This document shows, in pieces, positions 898 to 30,322 of a stretch of 64,000 nt of DNA. The stretch is from Phoronis australis. Taxonomy: Eukaryota > Animalia > Phoronida. The notes beneath the pieces are model-generated. The model ran no database searches, was not told the DNA's origin, and worked only from the letters and a program-made list of their open reading frames with translations. The stretch covers positions 155,030 to 219,029 of the forward strand of contig NMRA01000574.1 in NCBI GenBank assembly GCA_002633005.1. Reading direction: 5' to 3'. Position numbers and translations under genes: made by a program. The stretch's first letter is position 1. Each line of letters begins with the position of its first letter.

Positions 898-1356
898 CTG
901 TAGGTAACATTCCCTGATAACTGACTACATGCACCAACAGGTATGGGGAGCGGCACGGCCTTCCTGGTCAGTCCATCAGTCTTGTCCTCTCCCCTACTCA
1001 ATAGAACTGGCACAAGCTCTGGAGGTACCGTTTTTTCAGGCGAGGGGGACACCTCACCGTTCCTCTGTGGGGTTGCCAGCACTGCCAATCTGTTGATTTT
1101 CTCCGCCTTCAGCTTGGCTCGCATGTCCAACAGCAACTTATGCACAGAGTCACTTGTCGTGATGCCGTCATTGACGACCGTTTCAATGACCTCGAGAAGG
1201 CCGCAATTCAACATGGCCTCCTTGTTAGCACGGCTGTTGTTGGCCAAGTTTTTGAAAGCTTTCACAGAGGCCTGGACAAACTTCTCACTGTCAGTCTTCG
1301 ACAGCCTCTCAGCAATGACAGGAATGATTCCCTCTTTTCTGAGCATATCTCGCAGT
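898..1356 (-). CDS. TDRD12: TDRD12 exon, ARM repeats and linker (EGIIPVI...KNLANNSRANKEAMLNCG); gene continues left of the window
   Basis: ttcag acceptor, AG|gtgagc donor, open frame. Confidence 0.8.
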
Positions 1357-1752
1357 CTGAAGATAGAAATAAGGACATTATACAAGACAGAACAAGGCCA
1401 GTAACTAAACAAGGAATACTTGATCTTCCAAATCTGATGCCAACAGTCAAAACTCAGTAAGACAATGCTTTCCACTTCTTCAATACCTAAACAAATCCTA
1501 GATAAATACCACTGTGGGTCAGTCGCAAATTCATCCTGAATCTTCAAAGCTAATAATGCAGTAACATATGTCAACTAAGTAAAATATGTTACAAAAACTC
1601 ATCCTGTTGAGAACATCAGCCATGTCTACCCTCGCTCAAATCTCTCGTTCAGTCATCAGAAGGCAAGGACAAATTCCTCCATCACCCGTTTCCACTGAGT
1701 TTCACTAGCACCCAACAGAGACAACAGCATACATTACCCCATCTACACTTAC

Positions 1753-2007
1753 TCCATGTACGAAGCCATCGTTCCAATAATCGTCGTCGCACCTGTTAGC
1801 ACCGCGTCATTGCCTGTGGACTCAATCACTGTCCGCAGACACTGTATGCCATCACTGAACTTAACCGCTTGACAATTGGGAAGACACTCAGCAGTCAAGG
1901 CTGCCAAAGCCCAGATGACCTCATCTGCTACACGGTCACTAACGGACGACTTGAGTAGGGTGCACAGAATGTCCACTCCTCCTTCCGTGCGGATGGCTGA
2001 GCGCATT
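1753..2007 (-). CDS. TDRD12: TDRD12 exon, ARM repeats (EGGVDILCTLL...WALAAL)
   Basis: Clear armadillo consensus; ttag/gtaagt sites. Confidence 0.8.
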
Positions 2008-2569
2008 CTAAGAAATTGCAAGACTGATCAGGCTCACTCAAGTTGATGACTGGTAAGTTGAGAAAAAAGTATGCACGATTACTCTAAATTTCCACTAGCT
2101 CACTTTCAGAGAAAAAAATAATTATTTCATACTTCAGAAATCTAATAAATAATCTATCTAGACAGAAATTCCATCGGATCCTAATCTCTGACATCGTGCA
2201 TGATATAAATTGTTATTTAAAGTATTCTGTATAGAAAGCAAAATTTTTCTCAATCTGATGTTATTCTAAGCTACTTAAATGATCATTTATATTTATCAGC
2301 TACAATTTTTCAAGGTCAGCCAGATTTCTCAGAATACATTTTACGATAATTTAACACTATAATCAACATCACAATATTATGCAATGAAGCACAACTCTTA
2401 GTATCATCAAAACAATAATTTAACAGTCAAATAAAACTACTTTCATCATTTCACAAAACTACTGTCTTGAAAGAGAGGGAACCAACTGTAAATCATGGTC
2501 ACTGATGGCAATGTATTTCCAATGGTAAATACCTATCATTGAGGGCAATGTATTTCAAATGGTAAATAC

Positions 2570-2634
2570 CTGTCATTGAGGGCAATGTATTTCAAAGCCC
2601 AGGAAAAACATGAGATCATGTTGGGGTCTTCTGT
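2570..2634 (-). CDS. TDRD12: TDRD12 exon, ARM helix 3 (TEDPNMISCFSWALKYIALND)
   Basis: ttgcag acceptor; WAL motif; bridges phase 0 to 2. Confidence 0.75.
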
Positions 2635-2997
2635 CTGCAAAGGTATTCAAAAATTCATTTAATCCTGACTTTGTTACAAAAAGAAAGTGAACGATATAGT
2701 TAGGTCACTTGTACCTCAAACAAACATATCAACAAATTATAAGAATGAAGTATAAACACAAGAACTGCTCAAGGTTACCTAGGACCATAGCAAAATACCA
2801 TAGCAAAATGCCCAGAAACATATCTCGGAGATGGCTGATCGGATTCATGTTAAACTTTCAGATACACTGCTTAACGCACTGTTCTGTAAAAGACTTTTAA
2901 GTATTTAATTGTGTTGTTATAAGTCAGTGCGTAGATATCACATAAACAAGAATTATTAGTCTCCATGCTATTAAATTTGTATTTCAGTACTCCACCA

Positions 2998-3075
2998 GAG
3001 GTCCCGATGGCTCAGTGGACTAGAGTATATGCACGGTTAGCAGAAAGTCCTGGGTTTGAACCCCGGTCAGAGTAG
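2998..3075 (+). mobile_element. tRNA-derived SINE head or tRNA pseudogene
   Basis: A box TGGCTCAGTGG and B box GGTTTGAACCC at tRNA-like spacing; no clean cloverleaf. Confidence 0.55.
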
Positions 3076-3804
3076 AGACTTAAGTATGGGTCAGGTGATG
3101 TGACCAACATACGGCATGTATGAAGATTAATAATTCTTGCTTGTATGCTGTTAAGTATTGTTTTTGAAATTTTCTACTTTTGTATGATTGACAATCAAAA
3201 TGGGGCTTTAATCAGGTTGCATAAATGAAAAACGAAAATATAACTTAGCAAATTGTAATAACATTTTTGAAGTTTCATCTAGAGCACTTATGTCCAATGA
3301 AATTAGTCATGTTATTGATAACGCGATTTTGCTATGAATGCACCTTTAGTTTTGATAAATTTTACTAGAAAGACAAGTTCATATGACCCAACAGATGACA
3401 GATATAAAGTCAAAAATAAAATACATTCTGCTGGATTTCTTCTTACAGAAAATAAATTATGCTTTTACAAACTAGTTAAAATATATAGTTTTATAGACAT
3501 TTGGCTAAATTCACACATTTGTCAATATGGTCCTACATAACCTCAAGTTCACATTCATTTCCATTTTGATGGCTTCAAGGACAAACAAAATTCAAAATCT
3601 AAAAAATTTTTTGAATGAATACGAACACAAACATCAAACAAAAGTGCAGACAAAATGACCCAGATGTCCTCATCAAGACGGCAGAGCATAAACAGAGTTC
3701 ACCGTCATCACGCCGAGTGAAATCGAAATTCATCGTCAGAGAAGCTGAAATGGCGATTCCTTGCCCACCAAAACGGAGAAACGTAATTTAACACAATGAA
3801 GTAC

Positions 3805-3994
3805 CTCTTTTAAACATTCACACAGAGTCTTTATACCATCCATCTTGTGTATTTCATCACAGTTCCTCACGTTGTTGATGGACATATAGATGAGTGAAAA
3901 CACCAGCTGCTCCAGCACGGCGTAATTCTCCTCCTGGTTTATCTGCTCACAGAGGGCAGTAACGCAGCCAGCAACACGCATCTCGTCTTTAAAA
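3805..3994 (-). CDS. TDRD12: TDRD12 exon, ARM repeats (FKDEMRVAGCVTALC...DGIKTLCECLKE)
   Basis: Armadillo G-x-x-x-L periodicity; phase fits. Confidence 0.75.
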
Positions 3995-4424
3995 CTGTTC
4001 GATGGAACGTGTTACAAGTTACAGAACAATAACATTTGTAAGAATCAAAATAAAGCTTCTTTGATCGCAGTATGCTTTGATGTCTTCACAAAAAAGTTTT
4101 GAAGTCAAACATGAAGGAAAAGAGGGGCAACGCCGTACATTAAAACACCGACAGGAATTAATGAGGAAGTCGTCTAGTGTGGATAGATGTACTTCTAGTG
4201 CACGTCATATTAAAACTGTTGATAGCCTGATGGGCTTCTGAATGACCAGATGCCCAGTTGATCTCTTCATGATTGTCTGCCGACTGCCATCGTGGCATAT
4301 CATCCCTTTCGTGTCGTTACTCCCCATCTGATAAAACATCGTCTATCATTTCTGGCCAAATGGATGTACCTCATTTCACGAGACCAACCAAACAGACATT
4401 TGACCACGCCACAGGCATACTTAC

Positions 4425-4579
4425 TTAGTACTCTTGACAACAATGCTGAGTACAACCTTGGCCACCTCAAGTCGCTTCTCCACTGCCTGAGTCTGTCTCA
4501 TGAAGGCACACAGGTCAGGAATCTTCTGGTAAGGATAGTCGTAATGCTTCCTGGTCTCCACAGCCTCTGGAAATACGTC
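4425..4579 (-). CDS. TDRD12: TDRD12 exon, linker into ARM region (DVFPEAVE...VVKST)
   Basis: ccag/gtaagt sites, open frame, phase 0 to 2. Confidence 0.75.
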
Positions 4580-4983: not shown

Positions 4984-5213
4984 CTCGTCACATTCTGGTA
5001 CATATCGAGCATGCCCAGACTGAATGAGTTCCTTACGGATGTTTACATCCTCTGTGCCCGTTGTGTCGAACAAGTCAACATAGAACCTCTGTATCCCTGC
5101 GTAGAGTGATCCCGTCTTCTTCGCTACCTTAGCCATCAGCCACTTCTGGAAGTCATCTTGGCCACGAGTCAGCTCCCATAATGCATCACCGTCAGCCTCT
5201 GACCAGCTGCCCT
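4984..5213 (-). CDS. TDRD12: TDRD12 exon, end of Tudor-3 (WSEADGD...VNIRKELIQSGHA)
   Basis: SN-like C-terminal part of extended Tudor; AG/GT ends. Confidence 0.85.
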
Positions 5214-5457: not shown

Positions 5458-5630
5458 CTGGTGAGGTGACATTTGCCAACGAGCATTCAATCGCCTGGAA
5501 TGGGAAGTCATGATACTGAGCAGGGAGGGCGCAGACACTGTCTCGGGAGACCGGCTCGTAGTCACCGTAGTCAACGAAGAACACTTGGACCTGGTCGTCA
5601 CGGTGACTCATCACCTGGGCTCTGTACCAC
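5458..5630 (-). CDS. TDRD12: TDRD12 exon, Tudor-3 (WYRAQV...FFVDYGD...PFQAIECSL)
   Basis: Canonical Tudor motifs. Confidence 0.92.
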
Positions 5631-8200: not shown

Positions 8201-8308
8201 CGGTCATCTACAGGGAATTTGGCAAGACACAGCTGTCCCGTCACGTAGCTAACTTGAGCAGTCGTGTCGACGACATTACTATTGATTTCATCCATCATTT
8301 CTTCCAAC
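8201..8308 (-). CDS. TDRD12: TDRD12 exon, Tudor-3 (GQLCLAKFPVDDR)
   Basis: Tudor core pattern. Confidence 0.9.
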
Positions 8309-9408
8309 CTACAACAAAGCGCCAATTACATGAAGACAAAACCCTCCATAAGTTTACACTTTTTGCAAGTGATACTTAGCAAAGTTTGATATTTTTCTCT
8401 AAGTTTGAACCCTATGGCTCCTTTCCTAACCATTGATACTAAGGAGTACAGTAAATCGAAAAGTCTTGAGAGTTGTTGCGTCAGTCACATTTTCCAACAT
8501 TGATTAACAAGCATAAAAAACATTTTGTCTCTGGTTAACCATTGCTGTGCAAGCTTGACTAAAATTGCTCTTCAGAATCATAATTCAAGCTGAATGGAGA
8601 TCGAAATAAACAATTCCATGGCTTGTTCATGCATAAGAACATGGCTCGTGCTGTAAACTCAAGCATAAACACGTCTGCCACATCACTAGATAACCTTGGT
8701 GAGGAGCCTTGAATAACACAGGCCCCAAAAAGATTGAATAATATTAACCAAGATTTAATAATATTGACCAAGCTTGAATAATACTGACCACGCTTAAAGG
8801 AGTATGCCACCCGATTTAATTAGTCTTTTTTACAGTGTCTTAATTGGTCTATATCCACATCACCTCGTATAGAGTCGATGTTACCTCACCGAGAGGTGTC
8901 GCGTTAACCTGTGAAGGTGAGCAACACAGCAGTGATGTCAGTGGTTCCTCTTCAGAGTGAGTGCCGCTATGGTGTGGGGTATTATTCCCGCTTGTCACAA
9001 CGCTGCTATTCTTACTATTCCTAAAAGATCTGTTTAAAGCTATATGGAATGCTGCTTCGGTGGGTCAAAAATGGCCAATTTCGAAGTAAAAAGTATGCAT
9101 GAAGCACACTGTGAGCACAGGAAAACAAAATTAGTGTTAACTTGCCTAATTTACAATCTACAACTGTTGAAATTGTGTGAAATAGAATGTCCCAAGGTAA
9201 TGGTCATTTTACCTAAACAGTGCTCAAAATTAATCTAATAAAAAGTTTACATGACACGATTGTGGGGGGCGTAGTAACATGAGTTAGAGCAGATAACATT
9301 TTTCATACATGCACCTTTTTGAAATGGCGGTATGAATTTAACTTTGTGACGTCACATTTATATTGACTAATGTAAGATAAGCTAGTACCAAAACCACAGT
9401 ATACTCAC

Positions 9409-9632
9409 GCTGTGCTCAGTTCTCTTGTCTGGACAAAGAACAGTTCAGGTGATGTCACTGCTGACACATAAACTGAGTGGAAGTCTTTGTTCTCCGCCAG
9501 TATTGCAAAGTCGTGTTCACCCTGTGTGTCAGCCAACTCGAGCTGACCTCCACTGTTGTCAGCCTCTTCTTTTTCTGGGACCTCCGGGAGGTCAATTTTT
9601 CCCTGGCAGGCAGCTTTCAGTAAATCTATGTG
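9409..9632 (-). CDS. TDRD12: TDRD12 exon, Tudor-3 start (HIDLL...VYVSAVTSPELFFVQ)
   Basis: Extended-Tudor SP-x-x-F-x-VQ motif; cag/gtgagt sites. Confidence 0.9.
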
Positions 9633-9951: not shown

Positions 9952-10081
9952 CTCTTTATTGTCCAGTGCCAGTCCATTCCTCAGCAGTTCCCGTCGGACA
10001 TTAAATTTATTGGTGATAATCCTCACATACTTGTATCGGACCCTCTCCACCAGGGGGTCCAGCCAGAGGCAACCACCGAGA
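9952..10081 (-). CDS. TDRD12: TDRD12 exon (SLGGCLWLDPLV...NVRRELLRNGLA)
   Basis: LW-x-DP segment typical of TDRD12. Confidence 0.9.
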
Positions 10082-10969
10082 CTGAAAAGCATAAGGAAAA
10101 CGAAATGGTAAGTTCAAATATGCTCATCGTTGGACAAAATCAGAATCCCCACTCTCATCACTCAAACAACAGACCACAGGAAAAGGCAACGAACACGACA
10201 CTTCATAAAAAAGAAATGAAGAGTTTCGTAGCAGAGCAAGATAACCGCCAAATTTGAATGTGCCCAGCCATTACAAGTTTAACTCATTTAGTGGCCTTTC
10301 AGAGGAGAGAGCAGTGCTGAAAATCAGATAAGACCTTTTTTCGATTGTTTTAACAGTTAAAACTAGTCCAGGTAGCCATTGTCCTCAATCACAACATGCA
10401 TGCTAATTATCTACCAGGCTTTTAAAGAGTTACCTAAAACCAAGCATTCAATGGAGGGCAGCCAAATTGTAATGTCTTACGGACATTTGGGCAATTATCA
10501 AACAAAATGCCTAGTTTGGAGTCAGAAACGATACAGTGAAGTTACTCAGCAGGACAGACGTTCATCGACACAACTGGGAAAGCTAACTTGTTCTAATCCT
10601 GTTGAACTTAACAGGAAACAGTCAAGGAGAGAAAGTTGCAATGGCGCACATACCACTTTGTAAAAAGATGGAGCACGTTTTGGGGCATGTGTTACTGTTG
10701 GATACCTACCATCTACAACTTGTGATGTCACAGCAGCCTATTCGACAATAAACGTTTAGTGAGATACAGTCGTTTTTCTTTTTACAGAAATGGTGAAATT
10801 AAACACAGCTTACCAAAGTTTCATAACAACTTCAAAGCTGAGAATTTTCTGAATAATGTTAACTCAAGCATTGCTCAATTTTTGATGACTACGGTACTCA
10901 GTCTTCTACCAGAAACTACAATAACTTGAGCATCAAGGTCATAAATTACGGTTGATGACCTTTAATCAC

Positions 10970-11094
10970 CTGAGAACTATTTTTCCGTCCATGTCCTTGC
11001 CAGATATGAGGTCAAACACAAACTTGTCGGCACGTGGCGTCCACTCAGGGTCAAGGTCCATTGGCTTGACACGGCAGATGAACACTTGAACAGC
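10970..11094 (-). CDS. TDRD12: TDRD12 exon (AVQVFICRVKPMDLDPEW...GKIVL)
   Basis: CRVKP-x-D-x-x-x-EW segment characteristic of TDRD12. Confidence 0.9.
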
Positions 11095-11904
11095 CTGGTG
11101 GATTAAAGAAAACTCATACCCACAAAGGAAAAAATTACCTTCACTACAAAGTTCTAGAATAGCAAGACACTCAGTACCAATGTAGACAATTTCTGCTCAC
11201 TTCAACTATGATTTGACATCCAGACTTTTGAATCTCGTGACAAGCAGGCTGAACCAGTCAACCAAAATCCAATCAGGCTCCTTTAATGTAGCCACATTTA
11301 AACTGCAATTCTCCAACCAGTAAGATGCAGCTCCAAATCTTATCATTCGAGCTATGCCAACAGGCTTTTCTCCCTGAATTCTTTAGACCAAAGCAACTTT
11401 AAATTAGTTAACTGATGAGGTAAGTTAGTGGTCTTCTTGCATCTGATCAATGTCACTCGTCACTCATCACTCAGAATCTCACAGATTCACTGCTTACAAT
11501 ACTAAGTATCATACGAAATAAGTGTAAGTACAGTCGTTACTTACAAAAAGAACCTATTGATACTATCAATAATAACACTGAAGTATGACAATTAAGTGAC
11601 ATCTTCTTCAATACAAATAAAATATTAAATATTCCAGTGTTATTTTTCATCATCAATAGAGAATCCTACACGAGTCTAAGGTTTATGACATGAGCAAAAC
11701 CTCTTGGAAATTTTGTCAAAATCCCGAGGCTTGTACTTTTTTGTGATTCGCCCATGTAATACCAAAAAATTACGTACTCAGTGCTATCAACCAGTCGTAT
11801 CGTAACACATTCCAGGTCATGTGAGAAACACTGATATTGCACCAGTGTAATGGTAAACAGTCCGATCAAATTCTTAAGTCTGAAAACTTAAGTTACATAC
11901 TTAC

Positions 11905-11994
11905 CTGGTATGGTATGCTGACAAAAGTGTTGGGCAATATATATAGGCGGGACAGCTCAACCACTTCAGATCTACCCAAATCCACGAAGGAGAC
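11905..11994 (-). CDS. TDRD12: TDRD12 exon, Tudor-2 (VSFVDLGRSE...IPYQ)
   Basis: FVDxG motif; ttcag/gtaagt sites. Confidence 0.9.
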
Positions 11995-12399
11995 CTGAAA
12001 CGATCACAATAATACCAATCCATAATACTTATAAATATTATCACAGCATTGTGCTCTTGAGGGCCAAAAGTCAAAAGCATATTTAACACTTAAAGCACTA
12101 GCTGAAAATCCATAATTGCTGAGTTTAAAATTAAACAAAATAACCAGACTACCAGAAGTACCAGAACCCTAATCAAATGGTTCGTTCACTACTTGCACGA
12201 ATTCGCCATGTTTGAAAATGATGTCCAAACTAAAACGGTTTTGCATGTTTGGAACACTCGCGATTTCACGTACGCATTGTTAAAACTGATGCTAAAATGA
12301 CGCATAGTGTCATAAACAACAATGGACAATTATCATTTTTGCAGTGCCACCAAAGTGTGCAAGTAGTGAATAATTAACTACATACAATAAAGCCATCAC

Positions 12400-12512
12400 C
12401 TCAAGTTTGTCGGAATAATTCTTGCCATCGTCCAAAACCTTGACCACTTGAACTCTGTGAAACGTTCCTGATCTTGCCTCATAAGCACACAAGTCACCGA
12501 CAACAGGTGGCG
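12400..12512 (-). CDS. TDRD12: TDRD12 exon, Tudor-2 (GDLCAYEARSGTFHRVQV)
   Basis: Tudor core pattern. Confidence 0.85.
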
Positions 12513-12808
12513 CTAGAGAACACATCAGAAAAAATTTAGCACACCTAAACAACCATGCTATTTAATTTGAGGGCTATATAAAAAGGTATAACGAAACCAA
12601 ACTGGGAATCAATCTTCAAAAAAATTCAATATCTTGTCGAGTGAGTAAAAAATTTGTTTGCATGTATTGTATAAATTGCAAGTTAACACTTCTTAATACG
12701 TGTACAAACAATATCAAGTCGCCATTTTAACAAAAAGACAGATAATAATTGGCTACAGACATCACAAATATGCATCCTGCACAAGGTGGCGCTGCATGTC
12801 TAACATAC

Positions 12809-12977
12809 TTCCACACGCATACAGTCGTTTGTTCGTCTGCTTTCCAAAGTGAAGCTTCATGTCAAAGTCGAGTTGAGCAAACTGTACATTCAGTCGATGA
12901 GTTTCGCCCTCCAAATCCCGATGTTCTTGCAGACGAACAAAGTAACAGGAAGCAGTTGCAACGTGGGTAATCAGCAC
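12809..12977 (-). CDS. TDRD12: TDRD12 exon, Tudor-2 start (VLITHVATASCYFVRL)
   Basis: Extended-Tudor first strands; donor chosen by phase fit. Confidence 0.8.
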
Positions 12978-14181: not shown

Positions 14182-14281
14182 CTTAACTTCACCTTCCCGT
14201 GGTAACGCAACTCCCCTCTGCTTTGTTGGATCATCAAACTCGGATGAGATGAGATGACGATCTGTACATTTCATCTTGTTG
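14182..14281 (-). CDS. TDRD12: TDRD12 exon, CCCH finger second half (KCTDRH...PREGEVK)
   Basis: Completes C-x8-C-x5-C-x3-H. Confidence 0.85.
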
Positions 14282-14498
14282 CTGCAAAATTTGAAAATGT
14301 GGTTTGAATAAAATAAGCTAATGAAAATCCAAAATGCCATTGACCTTATGGATAGTGTATCGAGATTCATGCGCATTCCAGAGTGGAGATTTATGAGATA
14401 TTTCTTTTTTTTTTGTCACTGTACTGTTATTTTACCTACTACAACGGAATGATTTTCCACACTTCATTGAAAATATGACGTCTTATTCTATCCACAGA

Positions 14499-14570
14499 GA
14501 GGTCCATAATGGCTGGTCACAGTGAGGTCCATAATGTCTGGTCACAGTGAGGTCCATAATGGCTGGTCAC
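14499..14570. repeat. 25-bp tandem repeat x3
   Basis: gaggtccataatggctggtcacagt repeated. Confidence 0.85.
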
Positions 14571-15054
14571 GAGATTGATGAGTCTTATAGCCAAAACTGA
14601 GCAACAATCTCCTCATGAGCTGGACGACAAGAGTGATAAGTCGCCATTGATTTTAGAAAGCTTTGCAAATAATAATTGATGATGAATAATTGTTTGTTCC
14701 GGGGATTATTCTAGCTATGATGGATTATTCACTCTCACTTCTTGCTTCTTTACAGCAATTGAAGAGGTACACATTTCACCTAGACCTAGACAAAGTTGAA
14801 CAAAAATCTGATGCATCAAAGGACATTGTACAAACAGAATAAGAAACAAGGATTGTATTCCGTAAGCCTACACAGTACAAGTTCAACAGCAGCTATGCTC
14901 TTTCACTAAGCATTTGTGGCTCCTACAGTACAAAGTGATTAAAGAATACTAACTTACAGACACTGCCTGGCAGCTCTTACTGTACAATGTGATAACAGAA
15001 TACTTACAGACACTGCCTTGCAGCCCCTACTCTACAAAGTGATAGAATACTTAC

Positions 15055-15116
15055 AGACACTGCCCAAACGCCTTCATAGTCAGACAGAGAGAGCCACACC
15101 TGCTTTCTTCTTTACC
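15055..15116 (-). CDS. TDRD12: TDRD12 exon, CCCH finger first half (LCLTMKAFGQC)
   Basis: ttcag/gtaagt sites. Confidence 0.85.
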
Positions 15117-16585: not shown

Positions 16586-16726
16586 CTCCAGTATCCCATT
16601 CACCATAGCCCTTAGTTGGGCTGGGACAGGCTCTTTGAGTCGGTCCAACAAATGGACCAGGGTCAAGGCCTGGTCAGCGTTTTTGCTAGTCACCATTATG
16701 TAAGACAGGCCACCTGGCTTGAAATT
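16586..16726 (-). CDS. TDRD12: TDRD12 exon (LSYIMVT...EPVPAQL)
   Basis: DEAD-box C-terminal VP-x-x-L segment; AG/GT ends. Confidence 0.85.
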
Positions 16727-17475
16727 CTGCAAGAGAGAACAATGCATTTTGGGACAGATATTCATATGATATATTCTTTTACAATTATAATACATCATTA
16801 TTTTTTTCCATTAAGAGCACCCAACTACCTCTAAAGTTAACCCTACGTCTAGGGAAAGGTAAACCCTGAAATCAAGGGGAGTGTAGCTCTAACCCTAAGA
16901 TAAAAGGGAAGAGGCCCTAACCATATGACTGGAGGTTGAATTATTTTTTCTGATATGCAATATTCAAGTCAGGTTGCAAAACAGTGCAGGAAGAAATGAA
17001 ATTTTTGAAACTTTGGGAAAATCAGTAAAGTAGACAAATTTTTGGAAAAGGGATTTAGAAAATACTAATATCAAGTGGCTATGGTTGTGGAGGTCGAAAG
17101 TAAAACATAACCAAAAATCCCTCTCAAGGTTAGAATTGCTTCTGCAAAACTTTTTGGCTACTTGAGGCATTGCCATGAGGGATGTGGAATTGGTGATGCC
17201 CGGAGGGCAGCGGAGGATTTTCACCCAAAACCAAAAAATTCCCCACTCAAGACAGCACACGTAACTTTCCGATGTGGTGAGCAAGGGCCTCGTGGTAGAA
17301 TGTATAAACAAAATCTAAAGCTTTGTTCTAGAGATAGGCCATCAACACTATTTTCCCTAATGCATGGCGGAGAATGTAAGCCTGGGTTAATTGTTAAAAT
17401 CCAAAACCAAAATGATAGCGAATAAAATTAATAAAAATGCTATCATAAGCTAATGGCAAATCAGCAAACACTAAC

Positions 17476-17621
17476 CTTGTTATCAACCTCGATGACCTTA
17501 TAGTTTTTGGCCATGCAGGCCAGTCGTTTCCCAAAGTCTGACTTGAGGTCAGGAATGTCATAGTGTATGACACAGTCAGCGTCACGGATCTGTAGTTCAC
17601 TGACACACTCATCAGTTAAGA
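17476..17621 (-). CDS. TDRD12: TDRD12 exon, motifs V-VI (LTDECVSELQIRDADCVIHYDIP...FGKRL)
   Basis: Degenerate helicase C-terminal motifs. Confidence 0.9.
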
Positions 17622-17677
17622 CTGAAATGATAAATCCTAGGTGGATGAATCCTGTAAACCTAAACATGTTTGATATG

Positions 17678-18322
17678 AATAGGTTATGTATGACCTTATA
17701 GTCAAGTCAATAGGAGGTTATGTATGACCTTATAGTCAAGTGAATAGGAGGTTATGTATGACCTTATAGTCAAGTCAATAGGTTATGTATGACCTTATAG
17801 TCAAGTCAATAGGTTATGTATGACCTTATAGTCAAGTCAACAGGAGGTTATGTATGACCTTATAGTCAAGTCAATAGGAGGTTATGTATGACCATATAGT
17901 CAAGTCAATAGGTTATGTATGACCATATAGTCAAGTCAATAGGTTATGTATGACCATATAGTCAAGTCAATAGGAGGTTATGTATGACCTTACAGTCAAG
18001 TCAATAGGAATTATGTATGACCTTATAGTCAAATCAATAGGTTATGTATGACCTTATAGTCAAGTCAATAGGTTATGTATGACCTTATAGTCAAGTCAAT
18101 AGGTTATGTATGACCATATAGTCAAGTCAATAGGAGGTTATGTATGACCTTATAGTCAAGTCAATAGGAGGTTATGTATGACCATATAGTCAAGTCAATA
18201 GGAGATTATGTATGACCATATAGTCCAGTCAATAGGAGGTTATGTATGACCTTATAGTCAAGTCAATAGGAGGTATGTATGACCATATAGTCAAGTCAAT
18301 AGGAGGTTATGTATGACCTTAT
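17678..18322. repeat. Minisatellite, 31/34-bp unit, roughly 19-20 copies
   Basis: (agg)aggttatgtatgacc(t/a)tatagtcaagtcaat tandem. Confidence 0.95.
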
Positions 18323-19371
18323 TGACAAGTCTGTGCATTTAGCCAAATATCTTTAAAGCTGAAGATCTTTAATTCTGTGAAAGTATTTATCCTTTTCGCG
18401 TGATAGTATGGCCATGAAATACGGGTTGTATTGTGAGGTTTCATATGGAAGAACTACTTTTCCGTATTCAAAGCGCGTAACAAAAAATGAAATAAAAGTA
18501 CTGTTGAAAATTTTTCTTAAAACACCTTGAAATTTTGCACCTGAACAGAACACATAAATCACTAAAAGTCTTGAACTTGCCACAATATATTTGGAATTAG
18601 GAAAGCAATAAACGTTACCAATGCATGACTCCTTTTGGTCACCTATTGCATTACACAAGATGAAGTTCTCTATGGTCAAATATGAGTCAATTTTTAAATT
18701 CGTTCTCAAAACAATCAAAATACGTCAACCCCGAAGTTAAGATCTGAAAAATGCTGAAACAGTTACAGTTTTCCAAATTATCATTTCATTGTTCAAGGGA
18801 CAAACATCTACAGAAGAGCAATGAATTGAACATGTACATTCAGAAATGCCAGATACTATCAAACAAAATAAATCAATCACACAACATATTATAAGGCAGT
18901 GAGACAATTACAAGGAGGTATCGAGACATATTTGGCAAAAATGTGATGTTGTACAGAGGTCCTAGTTGATAGCACAATTGAGTTACAAAATACTAGACTG
19001 TAATAACAATGAACAACATATAACTCAACGTCTTAGACATTACTTCAAAGGGGCTACAAAGTATGCGTTTTGTCAAAGTAAATAACGCTTAATTTTGACC
19101 TCTTATGGCAAACGTCAATGTGTTCCTGTTCAAACGACAAGTGGTAACTGGGTTTGGAAAAAACTGACATTAATATTTGAGACCATGCTAGGTACATACG
19201 CTGTGACAAGTCACAGTATTACAATCTGATCTTAAGCACAATTAAACGAACTCCAAGTTCTTTCCAAGTCAAGAAATCACCTGAAGAACAATTTGAGACC
19301 AGTAGAAAGTGATCTAAATAAAAAACAAATTTTGCTATTCTTAGGGCGGCCAAACTGATAGTAAGAGTTAC

Positions 19372-19495
19372 CGAGAACTGGCTTTGATTTCTGCTGGTGA
19401 ACTGTCTCCCACTCAAAGCGCAGATCAGAAAAGTGAGTAGAAGTCATCTTCTCCGTAGCAATCCATACGTTGAAACTGCCATGGTTATGGAGTAG
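19372..19495 (-). CDS. TDRD12: TDRD12 exon (LLHNHGSF...KSKPVL)
   Basis: AG/GT ends, phase 0 to 1 fits the next exon. Confidence 0.8.
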
Positions 19496-19943
19496 CTGCA
19501 ACATAGACAGTCAATCGATTGTCAACCAAACTGGATTATATTCGACTGAGCTGGCTTACTGAGGTCCAAAAATCGGCACACAGGATTGACTTTTGTCCCC
19601 ATAATAGAAACCTAATTGCCAAATTTCATGAAACACCATCAAGGATTAAGACATAGAGGCAAACATTAAAAATTAAAATTGCCACCTGGGGGGGGGGGGG
19701 GNNNNGGCACAACAGTAGTCAGATCCATCCAAAAGTCATTGCTAGTTGTTGCCACATTCAAAGGAAAACAGCTGTTTAATTTCACAATGATTCAGCAAAC
19801 GGTTTAAGAATGCAGCCATGGATGCAAAAAAATCACCAGTAGTCACACATACAAACATGAGGGTGCGCTACAAAATTCTAAACGACACAAGAAACAGCGG
19901 TGATATCATACTTTGCTTAACATAATACATGCCGTCAACTTAC

Positions 19944-20066
19944 ATGGTAGACATCCTCAGCATGGTGTGGTGAGGTGAACACGAGGACACAACAACCCTG
20001 AAGCTGGTCCACGAGGCTGATCAGTTTGAGGCTCTGTTCCTGTGCCGTTCTACACATCACTATGTT
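19944..20066 (-). CDS. TDRD12: TDRD12 exon, RecA2 motif IV (CVLVFT)
   Basis: tag/gtaagt sites, 123 nt open. Confidence 0.8.
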
Positions 20067-20479
20067 CTAGAATGGAGACGTAACTAAAACTTACATACCT
20101 CATCTCCGCATTACGTTCATCATTAAGCAGATAAGATTATATCCTTGAGATGTGGACTTAAGGTCAAGAAGCTTAAAACAGGTAAAAATACACGCTGGCC
20201 AGACAGGCAGGCAGACGGGTAGACAGAAAGACTCTGTTAAAAAGTGCAACAAGTTGAGAAAACTGCACAAGAACATGACACTATAAAATAATTAAAATCT
20301 TAAGGTAACAGTTTTTGTGAGTTCTCATTGAAAACCACTTGCCTATTAAAAAGTGGCATTAATTCAATTTCAGGACAGTGATTTTTACATCATAATCCAA
20401 CTTATGTGTGACAAAAGAACGGATTTTACAAGTTATTACACAAACAATAATAGCAATACATTTGTCCATTGCCTGCTGC

Positions 20480-20550
20480 TTTAAACTCGCATGATCAATG
20501 ATGTTGAAAACAGCAGACAAGTCAAGAAACATCACACACTCATCCAATGA
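20480..20550 (-). mobile_element. Tiny LINE (CR1/L2-like) reverse transcriptase remnant
   Basis: VMFLDLSAVFNIIDH resembles RT motif LDLSAAFDTVDH. Confidence 0.5.
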
Positions 20551-20952
20551 ATGTAGGCTTACAATTTACATGATGCAACACTGCACATATTTGCAAGTAC
20601 TGCAGTATGAGTACATGCAACAAAATTAAAAGCAACAGAAAGGTGAGGAAATGGTCCAAAGGATGTAATCAAATTCAGATTAAGAATGAACTCCAAATTA
20701 CTTTGATAAAGGCAGTATCGGACTTCTTCAGTACTCAGTATCTTAAAAATAATTCTGCATAATGTCAGCGTTGGATATAGGATGTTACAGGGAAGGGGCA
20801 AAATTACTACTTTCGAAGACAAAATGATGCAAGAGACGTTCTTTGTTTTTGCTTTTGGAAGATATGGAGGAGTGAGGGAGGCCCCGGATTTCCGGCCCCC
20901 CACACACACTAATTGTTATTACAGGCAAAATTAACCAACATTTTGTTTTTAC

Positions 20953-21150
20953 CTGCTTCACTTTGCCATAGATCGCTGCTTCAAACTTGGATGCAATGAT
21001 GGTGATGGGATCTTGGAGATATCGGAAGAAGAAGGACTCCACTCCCTCCGTCCACTGTGAGCTGAACACCATGGTCTGACGAGGTGTGCTGCGGAAACGC
21101 TCAGGCTCGTCTCGCAGCACGTCCACAAATGAAGCCATGATTTCTTTGAT
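20953..21150 (-). CDS. TDRD12: TDRD12 exon, motif III region (RQTMVFSSQW...FEAAIYGKVKQ)
   Basis: Helicase motif III position; EAA-x-YG segment typical of TDRD12. Confidence 0.9.
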
Positions 21151-21396
21151 CTACCGCAAGATGGAGCAAGTTACACAAAGGTGTTGATCACGAAATCATT
21201 TTCTATTTTTCACCATTTACTCAAGACACAGAACATAAGCATACTATTCCCTCCGTCTGTGCGTATGTTTGCTTTTCATCGACAACTATTAAATGAAGGT
21301 TTGTGTATAACAAAATGAAATCTTTCTGAAATCACTGAACTCCAGCAAAACCTCCTTTGAAAAGTGGACTTGAAAGGTAAAACTCATTAGAAGTAC

Positions 21397-21543
21397 CTGT
21401 CCACGGAACTGATCAGTAAGAACATCTGCGTCATCCAACACAATATGACACAGTCTCTGTAGACTTGTGTACTGCTTCTTCAGTATACGTAACAGGCAGT
21501 GAGGGGTCGCCACCAGTATCTCACAACCATTTATTAGAGTCAC
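21397..21543 (-). CDS. TDRD12: TDRD12 exon, motifs Ib and II (ILVATP...VLDDAD)
   Basis: Helicase motifs; AG/GT ends. Confidence 0.9.
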
Positions 21544-22270
21544 CTGGTGAGAAGACATAAAACAATGGTTAAATGCAAAAGTAAACAATGTGTCGCTTAT
21601 AGGCAATCAGTTGAGCAAGCTGAGCTTAACCACACTTAGTTTAGAAAATAAACCGGTCAACATCGAAATTCGATGATGTACAAAACCGCTCTTAAACATC
21701 CATTCATTTACCACAAGGTCCCATTATAATTCTGGCTAAATCTTGACAAAAGCTCAACAGGTGTTGCTCCACGCAATTCTGTCGAAATTCTAAAAAGTTA
21801 CTAGTTAATTTGTGTTAAGTCTGGTAGAGTTTGACAAAGTTCTGCTGATGTCCGTCCAGTTTATTTTGAAAAATAATATACTTCAATGGAGGGAAAACTA
21901 ATTAAAGGAGACGTAAGCAAAGATATAAGTAGCTTAATAACAAAACCTGCCCATAAATTTTTATTCTTACAACTACAATAATTTTATTAACTTCTACTAA
22001 TTTCTCCACAGCTACGTACAGACTAGACGTATTTACAGAAGATATGATCTAGGACATGCCTCGTTCATATATCCGGTGATGCTTGGCCAAAACCAGCGAT
22101 TGAGCATCAATATCTGGTCGGCACTTTTGATGATCAAATGATTGTTCACTAATATGATCATTTTTTTTACCACTAACTCATTAGATGATCACCGAAAACT
22201 TTATGAGACCAAGGTAATATTTCTGCAGAAGTTAGAATTTTGCAGCCACATAACAGGCGGGGCTACTTAC

Positions 22271-22405
22271 AGCTTGGCTCTCTTCAGCCCCACCCCCAAA
22301 TACTACTCGAGTTCGCACATTCGGGCAATTTTTGTCGTACTTCTTGAACTCATCATAGATTGTACACGCTTTCTTCCAGCAGGGAGATATCACCAAAACG
22401 TAGGG
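22271..22405 (-). CDS. TDRD12: TDRD12 exon, motif Ia/GG (PYVLVISPCWKKA...VFGGG)
   Basis: Helicase motifs; ttag/gtaagt sites. Confidence 0.85.
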
Positions 22406-23403
22406 CTAAGAAATTAATAATTAATAAAATCACACAGTTATCAAAACACATAATATTACGATTCAATTTTCAGAATATCTAACAAGAACATGCATATTCT
22501 TTTCAAACTGCATTAACTTCCTTCGTAATTTTTCTTTACAAATAGTGGACATTAAAAACAGCGCGAAATTTTGAAATACAAAAATAGGCGATTGATAAAC
22601 TGTAAAATTTGATTAACGAGAGTCATTCAAACTCAAGACAGCTTGCGATTCACTTAATAGCTGCTTAGGATAACATGAAATAGGACAGAAAAGACCGAAC
22701 TTATTTTGTCAAGGTCCTCAACAAAAAGTAACCCTATGGAAAAAACGAAATTCCAGTTATAACTGTCATCAAATAACATGATAAAATTTTGAAAATTGAG
22801 AATATTCAACCTTCAAAAAACTAAAATTTCAACTTCAGCAATCAGTGGTTACCAAAACTGAAGAATCTTTATTGAGCAATCTCTGGGGGATAGTTTATCA
22901 GCTGGAGGACCACTAGAATAATCTGATTCCCACGATGTCTGTCTTCCATCAAACAAACTACGGTAAGAACTCTTCAGCTTGGGACAGTGAAAACTTAATT
23001 ATTTTGCTTAAGGCTGGAACTTGCACCACATTTTAAGGCAACATTGGTCGTCCAAAATTCAAGAATAAAGATAAGTGACAAATGATTGTTAATCTTGATT
23101 TTACATGTGATGGGGACAAGTGACGGGGACATGTGAAAATATTGCACCAGTGGCTATGTTTGAGGATTTTGACAACTAACAATGTATTATCAGACTCTGC
23201 TGATGCAATACACATATTTGAGAAATATTGTGAGCGCCAAAATTGCTCAAGTCCCAATCTTCAGAATCAAAACAATTAAAGTTTGGCTTGAACTTTTGTG
23301 TCCCAAATTTTAGAGACTGTCCCAAATTGGAGAATGTTTACTGTATAAAGATTCCAAACAACAGCTTATAATCCCTGCATAAGAACTCCAACAGTTTACT
23401 TAC

Positions 23404-23592
23404 CCCAGTCCCGGGTGGCATCTCTGCATAATTGGCTGGGCGGATGACCTGAGACAGAAGAGGGAGAAGATAAGCCAGAGTCTTGCCTTTGTTGGGCGGG
23501 GCTATACCCACAAGATCACTGCCTCGGAAAATACATGGCCAGGAGTAGCTTTGAATGGCAGTAGGACCAGGAAAATCAGCCTCCAGCAAAAT
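23404..23592 (-). CDS. TDRD12: TDRD12 exon, Q motif and motif I (FPGPTAIQ...GIAPPNKGKTLAYLLP)
   Basis: DEAD-box Q motif and Walker A-like GKT. Confidence 0.9.
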
Positions 23593-24359
23593 CTGAAATA
23601 AGTCAGACGTGTCAATACAATCAAGTTTGCAGTATTAAATCTTGACTCAGAAGCTACCAGTAACGTTCACTTCGTCCTTAGTGCAACGCTATAAAGTCAT
23701 GAACAAAAAAAAAACATGCCAGATCAACCCCTAAAAAACAACAGGTTAATTGAAGAAATGCTGAAACATAAATATCAGCATTTCAACACATTTCATATTC
23801 AGTTTGTCATAAATAACAAGGCTTTGAAGAATAGTTTCTTGGTTTGGTATAGGAACAATAAGTGTACATGAAATTTCTTCGAATAAATTTAACAGTGCTC
23901 AGGCAGTATAATGCTGCACTATTAAGTAAATACCAATTTCTTATATAACCAAAATCCTTCTCTTACAGTAAATAACGATTTCGCAAATTTCCACAATCCC
24001 TAAATCAATTCTCCTGCAAAAGTAGCTCAATCTATTGTCTTCACCGTCTTCAATTAATACTCAGTAAATTTCACAACTTAAAACACCTTGCTAATTCTTT
24101 TTGATTGGTCGTTGCTTCCAAATCTCCATTTTGTACTGTATAGGTCTAAGTGGTTATTGTGCCATTCCTGCTTTTGTGGTAACTCCGTACTGACTTTCTA
24201 TATATACAGTTCAGAGCTGATTATTTGAGAATTAACCTCTGAAGATGAAGGAGGATTCCCATGAAACATGTTTTGATTAAAAACAGTTGTTGTTTTTATT
24301 AAGTACTAATTCAATTTGGACCAAACACGTCCTGCATCATACGATTACGATGTGATTAC

Positions 24360-24473
24360 CTTTTTAACACTGTCTGGAAAGTGAGAGGCCTTTTCCAGAG
24401 AGGTGATGGGATTAGGCACGCCATCTCCATGGACAAGGATGCCATCGTGGTGACCCCGAACTCCAGGAATTTC
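24360..24473 (-). CDS. TDRD12: TDRD12 exon, helicase lead-in (ILVHGDGVPNPITSLE)
   Basis: Typical DEAD-box V-x-G...P-x-P segment preceding the Q motif. Confidence 0.85.
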
Positions 24474-26192: not shown

Positions 26193-28005
26193 CGTGGTGA
26201 ATGTTCTGAATCGGAGTCAGTGAAATAGACGCTGGAGCATTTGCTTTTCAGTATGGACTTGAGCGGCTTGGCACTAGGTTCTGTCTCGACCACTTCAGGG
26301 ACACGTGGCTGTTCTGACCGTTTGGCACTCTCATCAAAATTGTCCAGATCAACCAACATGGCGGTTGGCACTTCACAGACATGATTTGCTGTTGATTTCA
26401 TAGTCTCAGAACTGCTAAAAACTTTTGGTTTAAAGTTGCTTGGCTCCTTTGTACCACTGGTAACGGGCAAACTGTTAATCACAGTCATAGTGTGTTTGTT
26501 ACTCACAGCACAATCATCCACAGCACTAGGTTGTTGCTGGTGCAGTAGTTGCTGCTGCTGCTGTTGTTGTTGCTGAAGCAGCAATTTACATTGCTTATCC
26601 TGGTATTGCTGTTGTTGCAGTTTCAGCCGTAACTGTGATTGTGGTCGCTGTGATTGCTCATTCATAAGATGCTTGGGCAAACGAGCCGACAGCTTGCCAC
26701 CGGCTAAAGTCTTTATGCCAGCAGGCATCCCCTCATCGGGCTTCACTGTTAAGTCTCTAGACATAGGTTGACTGGAGCCAACAACATTCTCAGCATGAGA
26801 TTTCGCAGCTAGGTTCTTAGGCCGAACGTCAGCTGGTGGTGACAAAGGCAAAGGTCCTTTCCCATGGCAAGTTTGAGCCCCCGAAGATGCCTCCACCTCC
26901 AAATCCATTCCGCTGTCGCACACACTGTTTAGTTTAACATTATCCATAACCAGAGATTCTAATGTTTTCTCAACGCTTGACACATGTTTGGGATTACCTA
27001 CCTTGCTTCTACACCCAGGTTTCTCGGGAGAAGTAGAAGCCAAGAGAAGCCGCATACCTCTTCCTATGGTTTTGCGAGGAGGAGAGCCGGCGAAAACAGA
27101 CTGAGACACAAGAGACTTATCATCAACAGACTCGTCTGACTTATTACTCCCCTGCGCGGGTACTTTCTTCTCGTCGTGGGCAGCTCTCAAATCATTCACA
27201 GGAAGCTGTCGAGTTGCAAATCTGGACACTGCTTTGGTAGATTCAAATGAAACGACACAGTTTTTATCCTTGATTAGTGAAGACACTTGCTTTGAAGCAG
27301 GTTCAGATTTGTTTTGGTTGAGATCACCAACAGGTCTGCTAGATGGAAGACCCACAGTTGCAGCAGGGATAGATTGAGTTGACCCATGATTCAACGCAGC
27401 AGCGAGCAGCGCTTTACCCCTTTTCTTGGAGGGATTCTGGGGTATGATGCCACCATTTGAGGGAGTGTTTGGCTTAACCAGCGAGTGAAAACCTACATCT
27501 GAGGAACTTGAGGTTAATCTAGGGTGGCACTCGTGGGCGAGAGCTGAAACAGGAAATGGACGTCCTCGTCCAACTGCAAATGGTCCAGCAACACCACTAA
27601 CACGAGATACATCACCCACTACAGTAGAAGGCACATCTGTTCCCGAGATCCCCTTAGGCGTTGCAGATACTGACAATGAGCTTCCTGGCTGCAATCGAGA
27701 ACTAGAACGATGGTGTATAGCAGAAGTCAAAGTCGTCCATTCGCCAGGGTCCGGTGAACCAGAGCGCTCCGGCATCAGGGAAGTGGTATACGTGTTCTTA
27801 GCATTTAAAAGACCTTGTCTGTCTGTATTTTGCGCATCACCCTTCGCTGTGGCTGAAACTGCGTCTGGTTTGAAGAGATTGCAGATCTCCTGCAGGTGTT
27901 GGGAGTATCGCTGTTCTTGTCTCTCTTTAGTGGTACCCGTGAGCTTGCTAGGGGCAGCCATCTGTGCCTTCTCCTCTGTCGAAACATTGTCTTGCGCAGT
28001 ATGAT
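26193..28005 (-). CDS. TDRD12: TDRD12 large exon, S/P/K-rich disordered linker with polyQ
   Basis: 1813-nt open frame inside ORF 26105..27961; cag acceptor, gtatgc donor, phases fit neighbours. Confidence 0.85.
26530..26620 (-). repeat. Coding CAG/CAA polyglutamine tract
   Basis: QQQQYQ...QQQQQQQQQLLHQQQ in the large exon. Confidence 0.85.
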
Positions 28006-28395
28006 CTGTAGGATATAAACAACACGATGAGTTGACTTTGGCAATTAAGTGTTTACAGAGTCATGTCTCTAGCTTCTCAGCTCAAGTTTAACTACACATC
28101 AATAAAGCATAAAAAAGGTTCCAGGTGATCAGCGCAGCGGCCCACATGAGCGACCTAATAATCACTTAGAAGAACAACTTTTTATCCACGACCAACAACT
28201 TAAGATAATTAAAATATGTAATGTTGTTACTGTTAGTAAACACTCAAAAGTCATACTACGAAATCACGCATTTCTTCATTTTTCACCAATGCCAGTCGCC
28301 ACATTTTACGAGGTCGAACATTTTCTAGTCTTCAGGCAAATGATTAAGTTATTTGAACTCTGCTTGTAAGACCTGATATAGATTCAATTCTTTAC

Positions 28396-28542
28396 CTGTA
28401 GTGCTGGCATACATAGCGTACTGCAGTCGTACAAGCTCATCGTTGAGACACAGACTCTCCGTGGGGGTGCTGAGATACACCCGCACCTGCTTGCGCTCAG
28501 TCTGGGGCTCTCGGCACACGACATCAACCTTGGCACTATGCT
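28396..28542 (-). CDS. TDRD12: TDRD12 exon (VRVYLSTPTESLCLNDELVRLQYA)
   Basis: End of extended Tudor-1; AG/GT ends. Confidence 0.85.
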
Positions 28543-29136
28543 CTGTAAATTATAAAAACTTTTAAATGTTTACCCTTCGTTTAATACTAGTAATGACTCA
28601 AAGATGACCAAAAAGCATATAAAAATAGGGGAATTGAATCAAGTGTCCTTTTTTTCTAAACACCTTTTTTTCTAAACAATCCGAGATTGAGAACAGAAGA
28701 CTTACTTACAAAAGGGGGCGTTCATTTTTGATGTTTAGCCCACACAAATACAGTCCTGGAGGTGAACTGTCATGATAACGTATTGCAGTAACTGGTCCAC
28801 ATAGTTCAGAGTCTATGGGAAAATCCCTAGCAGAATTTTGAGCATGAACCCAGCATGTAATGGCTCCATACGGCAACAGCACCCATCAAATTGTACGAAT
28901 GAACTGGGCTGCGTTCCGTAGACACAAGAACCGGGTAAAAACGCAAGATGATGCACAAAATCATAAGATATCTCCATGCATCTCAAGAGAACCACGTGAT
29001 CACACTACCTTTATTTCTGAGTGCCTTGCATCTACACAATGCTGTCCTGTCATTTCAGTAGATGATGAGTGACAGATCTACTTACAGGACTTAACAAACT
29101 TACTTGATCATACGACAACAAAACCAATAAACATAC

Positions 29137-29192
29137 CTTGCAGGGTTTTCGTCAAGTAATCGCAAGCTGCTGTGTCCCATGTTTTAGCTGGC
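29137..29192 (-). CDS. TDRD12: TDRD12 exon (PAKTWDTAACDYL)
   Basis: Resembles vertebrate TDRD12 PAKKWDNAA; AG/GT ends. Confidence 0.85.
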
Positions 29193-29654
29193 CTGAAAAA
29201 GAATGTCGCACTTGTTGTTACTCGTCTACATTAAGGAATGACGAGTTGCCTAGCAACAGTCAGAGATTCAGAGTGAACAGAGACGCGTTTGGTAGTTTAT
29301 CAAGAGAACAGTCAACTTCATCTTGAACTTACAGCACTCATACACCATGCCAGATAGAAAGTTATTATTAACAGATACATGTTAACGCTTTGTTGTAAAC
29401 AGAACAGTTTCCAAAAAATGCAATGGCAAGATGGTCTATAATAAGAAATACCAGTAAGTCCAATTCACACCAGATTTTACAGAGCAGACCATCTAACTAC
29501 AAGCTGAAGCCCACTACGTAATAACAGTGCCTTTTCTTTCAACCACTTTTCAGCCAAGGAGCAAACCGATCTTCAATTGACCTTTCGCAAGCTCCACTTC
29601 CTTACGAAATGTTGACAAACAAACAAGAAGTTTTACCCGACGTGTTGTTTGTTG

Positions 29655-30322
29655 GGTAAAATAGCGGCTTGGAAACAAAGGTGTGTTAAGAATGCTGCCT
29701 TATCATTGGTCAGTCAAGCTGTCACTCAAAATCCTGGTGATAGGTCAATTCACCAAGCAACCTTAAAACTGTTTCTACTCAATACCTCTTGGAGCTTCAA
29801 GCAATTAATCCTTGAGAAATGTTAGAGAAATCATATTACAATCACTGCTATCACAGGCCCATTCTTTGCGACCTCAGCTGTTGTTATGACAACAGGTCTG
29901 CAGCCAGATTACCTGCGCTCGACGTCAAACGTATCTGGGTTTGTGTACATCGTGATGGGTACAACACCATGGAGTGTGAACTCCTGAGCTTGGAATGGAA
30001 CATCCCAGAAGTGAGAGTTGGGCTCCCGAAGCCTGTAATAACAATGCATAGAATTAAAAGAATGAAACAAACAAGGTGTCAATATGAATACTGAATGATG
30101 TTCTTGAAGGATGACAAGTTTTAGTAGATGTTTTCATCGGTCTCAATTTCGCAACATAACCTATAGCGTCGTATACTCTGCCTCTCCCTTGTGGAAAGTC
30201 ACCGACAATGTGTTCTTTGTCGGGTAAAACGGCGGCTTGGAAACGCAGATGGTGTGTCAAAAATGTTGCATTCTGATTGGTCAGTTAAGCCGTCAGTCAA
30301 AATCCTGGCAATAGGTCAATTG
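29655..30322. repeat. Diverged ~100-bp direct repeat pair (29655-29752 and 30225-30322) bracketing exon 29913-30032
   Basis: gcggcttggaaac...attggtcagt...tcaaaatcctgg...ataggtcaatt in both copies. Confidence 0.7.
29913..30032 (-). CDS. TDRD12: TDRD12 exon (LREPNSHFWDVPFQAQEFTLHGVVP)
   Basis: Extended-Tudor P-x-QA motif; AG/GT ends. Confidence 0.85.

Follow-up and report, generated by a model that had tools for sequence, protein, structure and literature searches.

A Phoronis TDRD12 gene with an armadillo-repeat block directly after its third Tudor domain, a possible docking arm

TDRD12 is required for secondary piRNA production and for fertility, and its mechanism has been studied in mouse, fish, silkmoth, and fly. 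Described members of the family (mouse, human, and zebrafish TDRD12, Bombyx Tdrd12, and Drosophila SoYb, BoYb, and Yb) share an N-terminal extended Tudor domain, a DEAD-box-like helicase, a zinc-finger-like region, an extended Tudor domain, and a CS domain. According to two reports, these proteins cooperate with PIWI, EXD1, and TDRD1 or Vreteno in making piRNAs and localize to the nuage in mouse, Bombyx, and fly; TDRD12 is presented as a nuage scaffold whose helicase core binds EXD1 or the RRM of Vreteno and whose CS domain binds Vreteno and localizes the protein (PMC12526068, PMC4712191). In the same reports, the helicase core of BoYb spans residues 38-476 and its CS domain residues 901-998, with one eTudor and then the CS domain past the helicase in both BoYb and SoYb (PMC12526068), and Bombyx Tdrd12 consists of a helicase flanked by Tudor domains and then a CS domain, the second Tudor being required for Siwi association and the CS domain for nuage localization (PMC4712191). 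Two further papers give zebrafish Tdrd12 as a protein of 1362 aa with a pair of Tudor domains plus a DEAD box (PMC5485951) and mouse TDRD12 as a protein of ~130 kDa on a gel with two Tudor domains (PMC4932588).

The gene reported here lies in a 64,000-nucleotide stretch of DNA from Phoronis australis (the window). Compared with the studied proteins, its product adds a third extended Tudor domain with a mostly intact cage and ~290 aa of armadillo (ARM) repeats before a likely CS domain. Upstream of the ARM exons, the locus contains a long low-complexity exon and encodes three extended Tudors together with a helicase of DEAD-box-like type and a region resembling a zinc finger (Table 1), and it is colinear with five homologs by tblastn. 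Pfam DEAD and TUDOR matches at the locus give a helicase core flanked by extended Tudors, the arrangement by which TDRD12 is recognized. The N-terminal half of the helicase is 37-51% identical to that of the 20 homologs considered below, several of which are named TDRD12 by NCBI. Motif II is without the catalytic Glu, with no D-E-A-D, in 21/21 aligned rows including the window, and degeneracy of this motif is reportedly (Pandey, in 2013) a trait of the TDRD12 family. By sequence, the host gene is identified as a TDRD12 family member.

Table 1. Features of the TDRD12 locus in the window (positions are those of the window).
Feature	Coordinates	Strand	Evidence
Tudor-3/ARM junction and N-terminal ARM capping helices; the one invariant Cys of the module	4425..4579	-	RNA, alignment
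First ARM repeat and beginning of the second	3805..3994	-	RNA, Pfam, HMM
Helix 3 of ARM repeat 2	2570..2634	-	RNA, alignment
ARM repeats 3 and 4	1753..2007	-	Pfam Arm score over the cut-off, model of six helices (pLDDT 91)
Fifth ARM repeat, capping helices at the C-terminal end, Pro-rich linker	898..1356	-	Pfam below cut-off, RNA
C-terminal half of extended Tudor 3	4984..5213	-	RNA, tblastn
Core of Tudor 3, carrying three of the four aromatics of the cage and the Asp of Papi/TDRKH type	5458..5630	-	Pfam, PDB match
Exons 9409-9632 and 8201-8308: linker plus the N-terminal portion of extended Tudor 3, first cage aromatic	8201..9632	-	RNA, tblastn
Extended Tudor 2 in five exons; its cage is degenerate	9952..12977	-	RNA, tblastn
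Two exons, Cys/His zinc-finger-like region (approximate edges)	14182..15116	-	Sequence comparison
DEAD-box-like helicase exons; motif II is D-D-A-D	16586..24473	-	Pfam, tblastn
Long exon, low-complexity, likely disordered region	26193..28005	-	Sequence
Exons of N-terminal extended Tudor 1 (approximate edges, start codon not fixed)	28394..33162	-	tblastn

A preliminary description of this DNA had read five exons as continuing the Tudor-3 frame without a stop and had named the 4984>4579 junction and those after it as the place to look for RNA support. All five minus-strand exons have AG/GT ends at these coordinates, and their joined frame lacks a stop; with nine upstream exons, it forms an open frame of 828 codons from 12977 down to 898. 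RNA came from three raw stranded runs (X1-X3) of one study under the same species label, of which ~18-19% each was used, and junction counts are sums over the three. Every junction named for these exons was seen at the predicted base: the one from the Tudor-3 exon to the first ARM exon (4984/4579) in 10 reads, followed by 4425/3994 (4 reads, all from one run), 3805/2634 (8 reads), 2570/2007 (7 reads), and 1753/1356 (14 reads). Upstream, reads joined 5458/5213 (9), 8201/5630 (13), and 9409/8308 (12); junction 9952/9632 was absent among the matches listed, and the other Tudor-2 and Tudor-3 junctions were present. The first mate was on the plus strand in all junction reads, which fits a minus-strand transcript. 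No exon-skipping joints were listed within 850-5270 at this low depth and short read length, no single short read spans from Tudor to CS, and 0 records of a fourth RNA set (X4, contigs) aligned at the locus. Of 21 exonic read variants, 16 were synonymous versus an expected 34% (p 9e-5; ARM exons plus the preceding exon, from 40 of 42 variants listed), showing purifying selection. These results demonstrate a spliced, expressed TDRD12 gene with an ARM block whose splicing, frame, and position are established. A separate ARM gene is ruled out by the RNA junctions, which tie these exons to Tudor-3, as had been proposed, and to Tudor-2, and by homologs in which the same parts are fused.

Eight reads from one run continue past 898 beyond the window edge, and thirty read-derived bases there, translated by hand, carry the frame into P-x-V-x-W-S, like the start of the CS domain in homologs. 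Exon 898-1356 thus appears to be spliced onward to an exon likely starting the CS domain, and, from this resemblance, the CS domain that was to be sought left of the window is very likely there. An AlphaFold2 model of the C-terminal piece of an acorn-worm homolog runs from a Tudor domain through an unbroken helical run (solenoid) and a disordered linker to a beta-sandwich; it has a mean pLDDT of 76.5 and a pTM of 0.59, a value that does not fix the Tudor-3/ARM angle, and its structural matches are the Tudors of TDRD1/TDRD2, ARM proteins of designed sequence, and p23. The ARM-to-CS linker is variable and of low confidence among homologs.

The identity of the block as ARM is consistent across methods. 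A one-repeat HMM, built from homologs with the window excluded, detects in the window protein five repeats spaced by ~42 aa, of which one is weak, and the aligned block comprises the repeats with capping helices at both ends. The whole-module HMM gives the window 226.8 bits versus 8.2 for the best of 500 shuffles. In a Pfam Arm (PF00514) scan of the four exons other than 2570-2634, exon 1753-2007 scored 29.1 bits (cut-off, 20.6), exons 898-1356 and 3805-3994 matched below the cut-off, and exon 4425-4579 gave no match. Exon 1753-2007 was modeled as six helices (pLDDT 91), and this two-repeat model superposes on ARM proteins at ~1.5-2 A with a TM of 0.75-0.87 by query length; its Foldseek E values were 0.004-0.02, none reaching 0.001 with so short a query. 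The ESM Atlas returned generic ARM clusters for the same exon (scores up to 0.96), and PDB sequence matches were designed ARM proteins and importin-alpha, down to E 4e-11. Pfam, the HMMs, and the models thus agree on tandem three-helix repeats of ~42 aa, as in importin-alpha, beta-catenin-type, and designed ARM proteins, and the block in the window is five ARM repeats plus capping helices. Of the approximately five to six ARM-like repeats initially claimed, five and their caps stand (HMM, Pfam), whereas exon 898-1356 ends in ~60 codons that belong to a linker rich in Pro and not to ARM.

Unlike the ARM domain of importin-alpha, that of the window has five repeats plus caps, sits inside a helicase-Tudor protein, and is without the Trp/Asn ladder on helix 3. 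Among the aligned rows, Trp occupies the groove in 7/20 at repeat 2 and 2/20 at repeat 3, helix-3 Asn occurs in at most 4/20 at any repeat, and net charge is not constant. Conserved columns belong mostly to the hydrophobic core, the best-kept stretch being the cap adjoining Tudor-3. The poor conservation of the groove argues against a single fixed peptide ligand bound in importin-alpha fashion.

To define the spread of the module, one helicase exon was searched against 1.84 billion cluster representatives, and 22 of the 62 matches, those longer than 900 aa, were scanned; 18 of these are TDRD12-type, and 4 were dropped as unrelated repeat or domain-less proteins. Names were taken from cluster look-ups, with a longer cluster member used for three species. 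A profile search including the ARM region added Oculina, Amphiura, and a second amphioxus and could be ARM-biased; most homologs were found by the helicase query and hence not picked for ARM. The final set holds 20 long proteins from nine phyla, all >1490 aa, plus a sea urchin model ending after the helicase. This 976-aa TDRD12 model, listed in a sea urchin localization study, is without everything past the helicase and flags truncated gene models. The profile search aimed at vertebrate and insect TDRD12 returned 4 TDRD12 among 9 matches, none from those groups, and the helicase-exon and profile matches included no TDRD12 from vertebrates, arthropods, flatworms, tunicates, sponges, or ctenophores. 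Cluster look-ups of short fragments added no full-length protein except Oculina, an ESM Atlas search with the amphioxus protein gave no usable match, and exact-word searches with an ARM exon and a helicase exon, limited to 2000 aa and uninformative, had no match.

The ARM module is complete in 19/20 long TDRD12 proteins (leave-one-out module HMM, 92-235 bits), from Cnidaria, Brachiopoda, Mollusca, Annelida, Nemertea, Priapulida, Echinodermata, Hemichordata, and Cephalochordata, versus <1 bit for each of five Tudor proteins run as controls and for the truncated sea urchin model. The exception, Tegillarca, has the first 81 module positions followed by a decapeptide repeat and is likely a faulty gene model. 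In the homologs, the block always sits between Tudor-3 and the C-terminal region, its alignment is colinear with a shared repeat register, and its length is 241-328 aa, mostly ~290 aa. These unstudied long proteins (Lingula, Oculina, Branchiostoma, Owenia, Priapulus, echinoderms, hemichordates, Tubulanus, and molluscs), known as sequences only, have the same domain order and ARM register as the window. Identity to the window is 15-31% over the ARM block, below the 23-42% of Tudor-3, Lingula being the closest (31%). Pfam Arm exceeds its cut-off in 9/20 homologs and in 0/8 molluscs, which helps to explain why the module was overlooked.

In the window, the cage of the third Tudor domain is made up of F, Y, F, Y, and D; at least three of the four aromatics are present in 19/21 rows and all four in 8/21. 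The best PDB matches of its core are Papi, TDRKH, and TDRD1, and the Asp after the last cage aromatic is common to Tudor-3, Papi, and TDRKH. With four aromatics and this Asp, as in methylarginine-reading eTudors, it is a predicted reader. Papi/TDRKH and TDRD1 read PIWI tails, and the window Tudor-3 resembles them in its core, methylarginine binding being a prediction. Tudor-2 is without an aromatic cage.

The ARM block follows Tudor-3 almost without a linker. From this adjacency, from the best-kept cap lying at the contact, and from the apparent joint absence of the two in short forms, we infer a single docking arm. The Tudor-3/ARM block would be an extra arm of the nuage scaffold, in which Tudor-3 would grip methylated arginines of the PIWI tail and the ARM repeats would offer a neighboring second surface to a partner protein. 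That TDRD12 proteins from coral to amphioxus have an ARM solenoid directly after Tudor-3 and that this block is a docking arm is, taken together, somewhat probable; the specific role in docking a PIWI tail and a partner is plausible but falls slightly short of an even chance. The ARM repeats may serve as the protein-binding scaffold that the preliminary description had proposed. What they bind is the least supported part of this explanation: with the ladder not conserved and the charge variable, the partner may be a protein that is folded and evolves fast, or no partner may exist.

In the latter case, the repeats could be mainly a rigid spacer or stabilizer of Tudor-3. The restriction of conservation largely to the hydrophobic core and the cap next to Tudor-3 would fit such a role, as would the seeming dispensability of the block in vertebrates and flies; the length and register held in nine phyla and the purifying selection count against it, weakly, because a spacer could keep these too. 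We regard this as unlikely. An equally doubtful proposal is that the ARM block and the p23-like CS domain form a built-in co-chaperone, in which the CS domain would engage Hsp90 or a TDRD1-like partner while the ARM repeats would hold unloaded PIWI during piRNA loading. ARM-type client-holding co-chaperones exist, such as UNC-45, and the CS domain in the acorn-worm model, predicted to lie one flexible linker beyond the ARM block, matches p23 in Hsp90 complexes. One report lists Hsp90 and Shutdown/FKBP6 as piRNA factors; however, it also records no in vitro binding of HSP90 by the CS domain of mouse TDRD12, and the CS domain of BoYb binds Vreteno (PMC12526068). The geometry also disfavors it, since the ARM block abuts Tudor-3 and is separated from the CS domain by the variable linker, and by published lengths, the CS domain is kept where the ARM block is absent.

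Very unlikely, in our judgment, is a solenoid bent back onto the helicase core to govern how that core holds RNA, by analogy with MIF4G/HEAT domains on DEAD-box proteins (eIF4G-eIF4A and CNOT1-DDX6). Helicase and ARM do co-occur in 19/20 long homologs, but the absence of the motif II Glu throughout probably leaves no ATPase cycle to tune, and two Tudors and the zinc finger intervene. A complex prediction for the coral helicase core and coral ARM block scored 0.00, with no alignments used and no controls modeled, and speaks neither for nor against. A docking arm for PIWI tails and other nuage partners would be the likeliest role of the block.

The module had originally been taken for a lineage-specific gain, a view that its completeness in nine phyla overturns. 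In an ARM-only tree (20 rows, Tegillarca excluded, midpoint root), support was 100/100 for molluscs, 99/97 for echinoderms, 100/100 for hemichordates, and 100/100 for amphioxus, and taxa required 3 changes versus 6.6 on average after shuffling. Lingula is the nearest neighbor of the window, which does not group within the sampled molluscs, and the base is unresolved. A tree matching the taxa, together with the same position and register, is as a single origin with vertical descent predicts. On these sequence data, the ARM module of TDRD12 is almost certainly ancient, with an origin that would predate the cnidarian-bilaterian split, as one cnidarian species (a coral) suggests. A gain confined to this lineage, or several independent gains, would fit the absence of ARM from what the published text available says about the proteins of fly, silkmoth, fish, and mouse but is extremely improbable given the shared position, shared register, and taxon-matching tree.

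The direction of change initially assumed is reversed: the block is ancestral, occurs widely, and has probably been lost from the model species. From the published coordinates, BoYb has ~425 aa between helicase end and CS start (PMC12526068), versus 839-1001 aa in 18 homologs; this gap matches Tudor-3 plus ARM, as measured from Tudor-3 to the ARM end in 18 homologs (497-562 aa). BoYb and zebrafish Tdrd12 are too short for both, which suggests that the studied proteins are reduced. Published lengths and domain lists suggest that fly BoYb and the vertebrate proteins lost Tudor-3 and ARM together as a single block, and loss in the studied models is highly probable. Bombyx Tdrd12 may carry the block, the available description giving no length. 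A further possibility, rather unlikely, is that ancestral animal TDRD12 had its own PIWI receptor, a Tudor-3 with an intact cage and the ARM block gripping PIWI and handing it over; vertebrates and flies would then have deleted the block independently and outsourced the job to separate Tudor proteins such as TDRD1 and Vreteno, and mechanistic work to date would concern a cut-down protein.

We found no description of a TDRD12 ARM module in the accessible literature, a scope that leaves out subscription papers, including the original TDRD12 papers. The word "armadillo" is absent from the accessible text of PMC12526068, PMC12147562, PMC12925329, PMC5485951, PMC13495564, PMC11316121, PMC10243637, and PMC6411831, and in the portion available of a survey of Tudor genes from 2025, DEAD is the sole domain given for TDRD12 (PMC12147562). 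Three proteins already have precomputed Pfam tags in which Arm stands alongside DEAD and Tudor. Of the alternative that the architecture was already common and described, the first half is correct, in that it occurs in nine phyla; as to the second, the module is apparently undescribed, yet latent in databases via automatic Pfam tags.

If most other phyla carry the 500-aa Tudor-3/ARM block, the textbook TDRD12 is a derived form, and the piRNA machinery of regenerating invertebrates would have an interaction module that nobody has tested. The block thereby offers a concrete target: its partner, and whatever replaces it in lineages that lost it.

A short tandem repeat lies among the exons that encode the armadillo-repeat (ARM) block of TDRD12. 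The end of exon 2570-2634, together with its donor site, is present in approximately three tandem copies of ~37 bp each that reach into the intron (window ~2495-2595, minus strand). The repeat thereby creates a look-alike donor after this exon, whose use would shift the reading frame, and among the RNA joints listed the first donor is the only one used. Just past exon 3805-3994, the intron (3671-3757) is covered by four reads with two start points from X2, one of three RNA read runs carrying the same species label, and these reads reflect intron retention or unspliced RNA.

For four predicted isoforms from abalone and oyster (P0065, P0083, P0084, and P0052; 1,757 to 1,826 amino acids), the match to the ARM block is confined to its first half, and no CS match was found in those that were scanned. 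These may be genuine short forms or annotation artefacts.

Where the long, likely disordered exon ends, a short block (26183-26275, minus strand) is conserved, with 50% identity to Lingula over 40 amino acids (E = 0.001). Within this block, an S-I-L-K motif precedes V-x-F, an arrangement that imperfectly resembles PP1 docking motifs.

The interspersed intronic repeats are not parts of the gene structure. Elsewhere in the window, the frames that resemble Gag and RT (53.4-56.6 kb) gave no match in the Pfam scan.

Low-complexity, repeat, and transposon-derived features in the window
Feature	Position	Strand	Remarks
Poly-Gln tract	26525-26600	-	Inside long low-complexity exon of TDRD12
Tandem repeat arrays	17680-18320, 13350-13720, 31270-31720		Intronic; by eye
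Interspersed repeats	5284-5340, 8794, 6300-6510, 7730-7940		Intronic; many unstranded reads, loose ends
PIF/Harbinger-type transposase remnant	47650-48601	-	Frameshifted; DDE_Tnp_4, HTH_Tnp_4
LTR-retrotransposon pieces	53374-63855		Decayed, clustered; Pfam-scanned
Integrase + DUF5641	59616-60602 and 58404-58694		In LTR-retrotransposon cluster
Integrase-like piece	63571-63855		In LTR-retrotransposon cluster

In its supplement, a sea urchin study lists XP_030831270.1 (P0042) as its TDRD12 (PMC12925329). This model comprises 976 amino acids, whereas TDRD12 is 2,090 to 2,235 amino acids long in three other echinoderms, and it has only Tudor-1 and the helicase. The same study describes the localisation of GFP-TDRD12 in sea urchin as weak (PMC12925329), which may be due to the use of a truncated construct.
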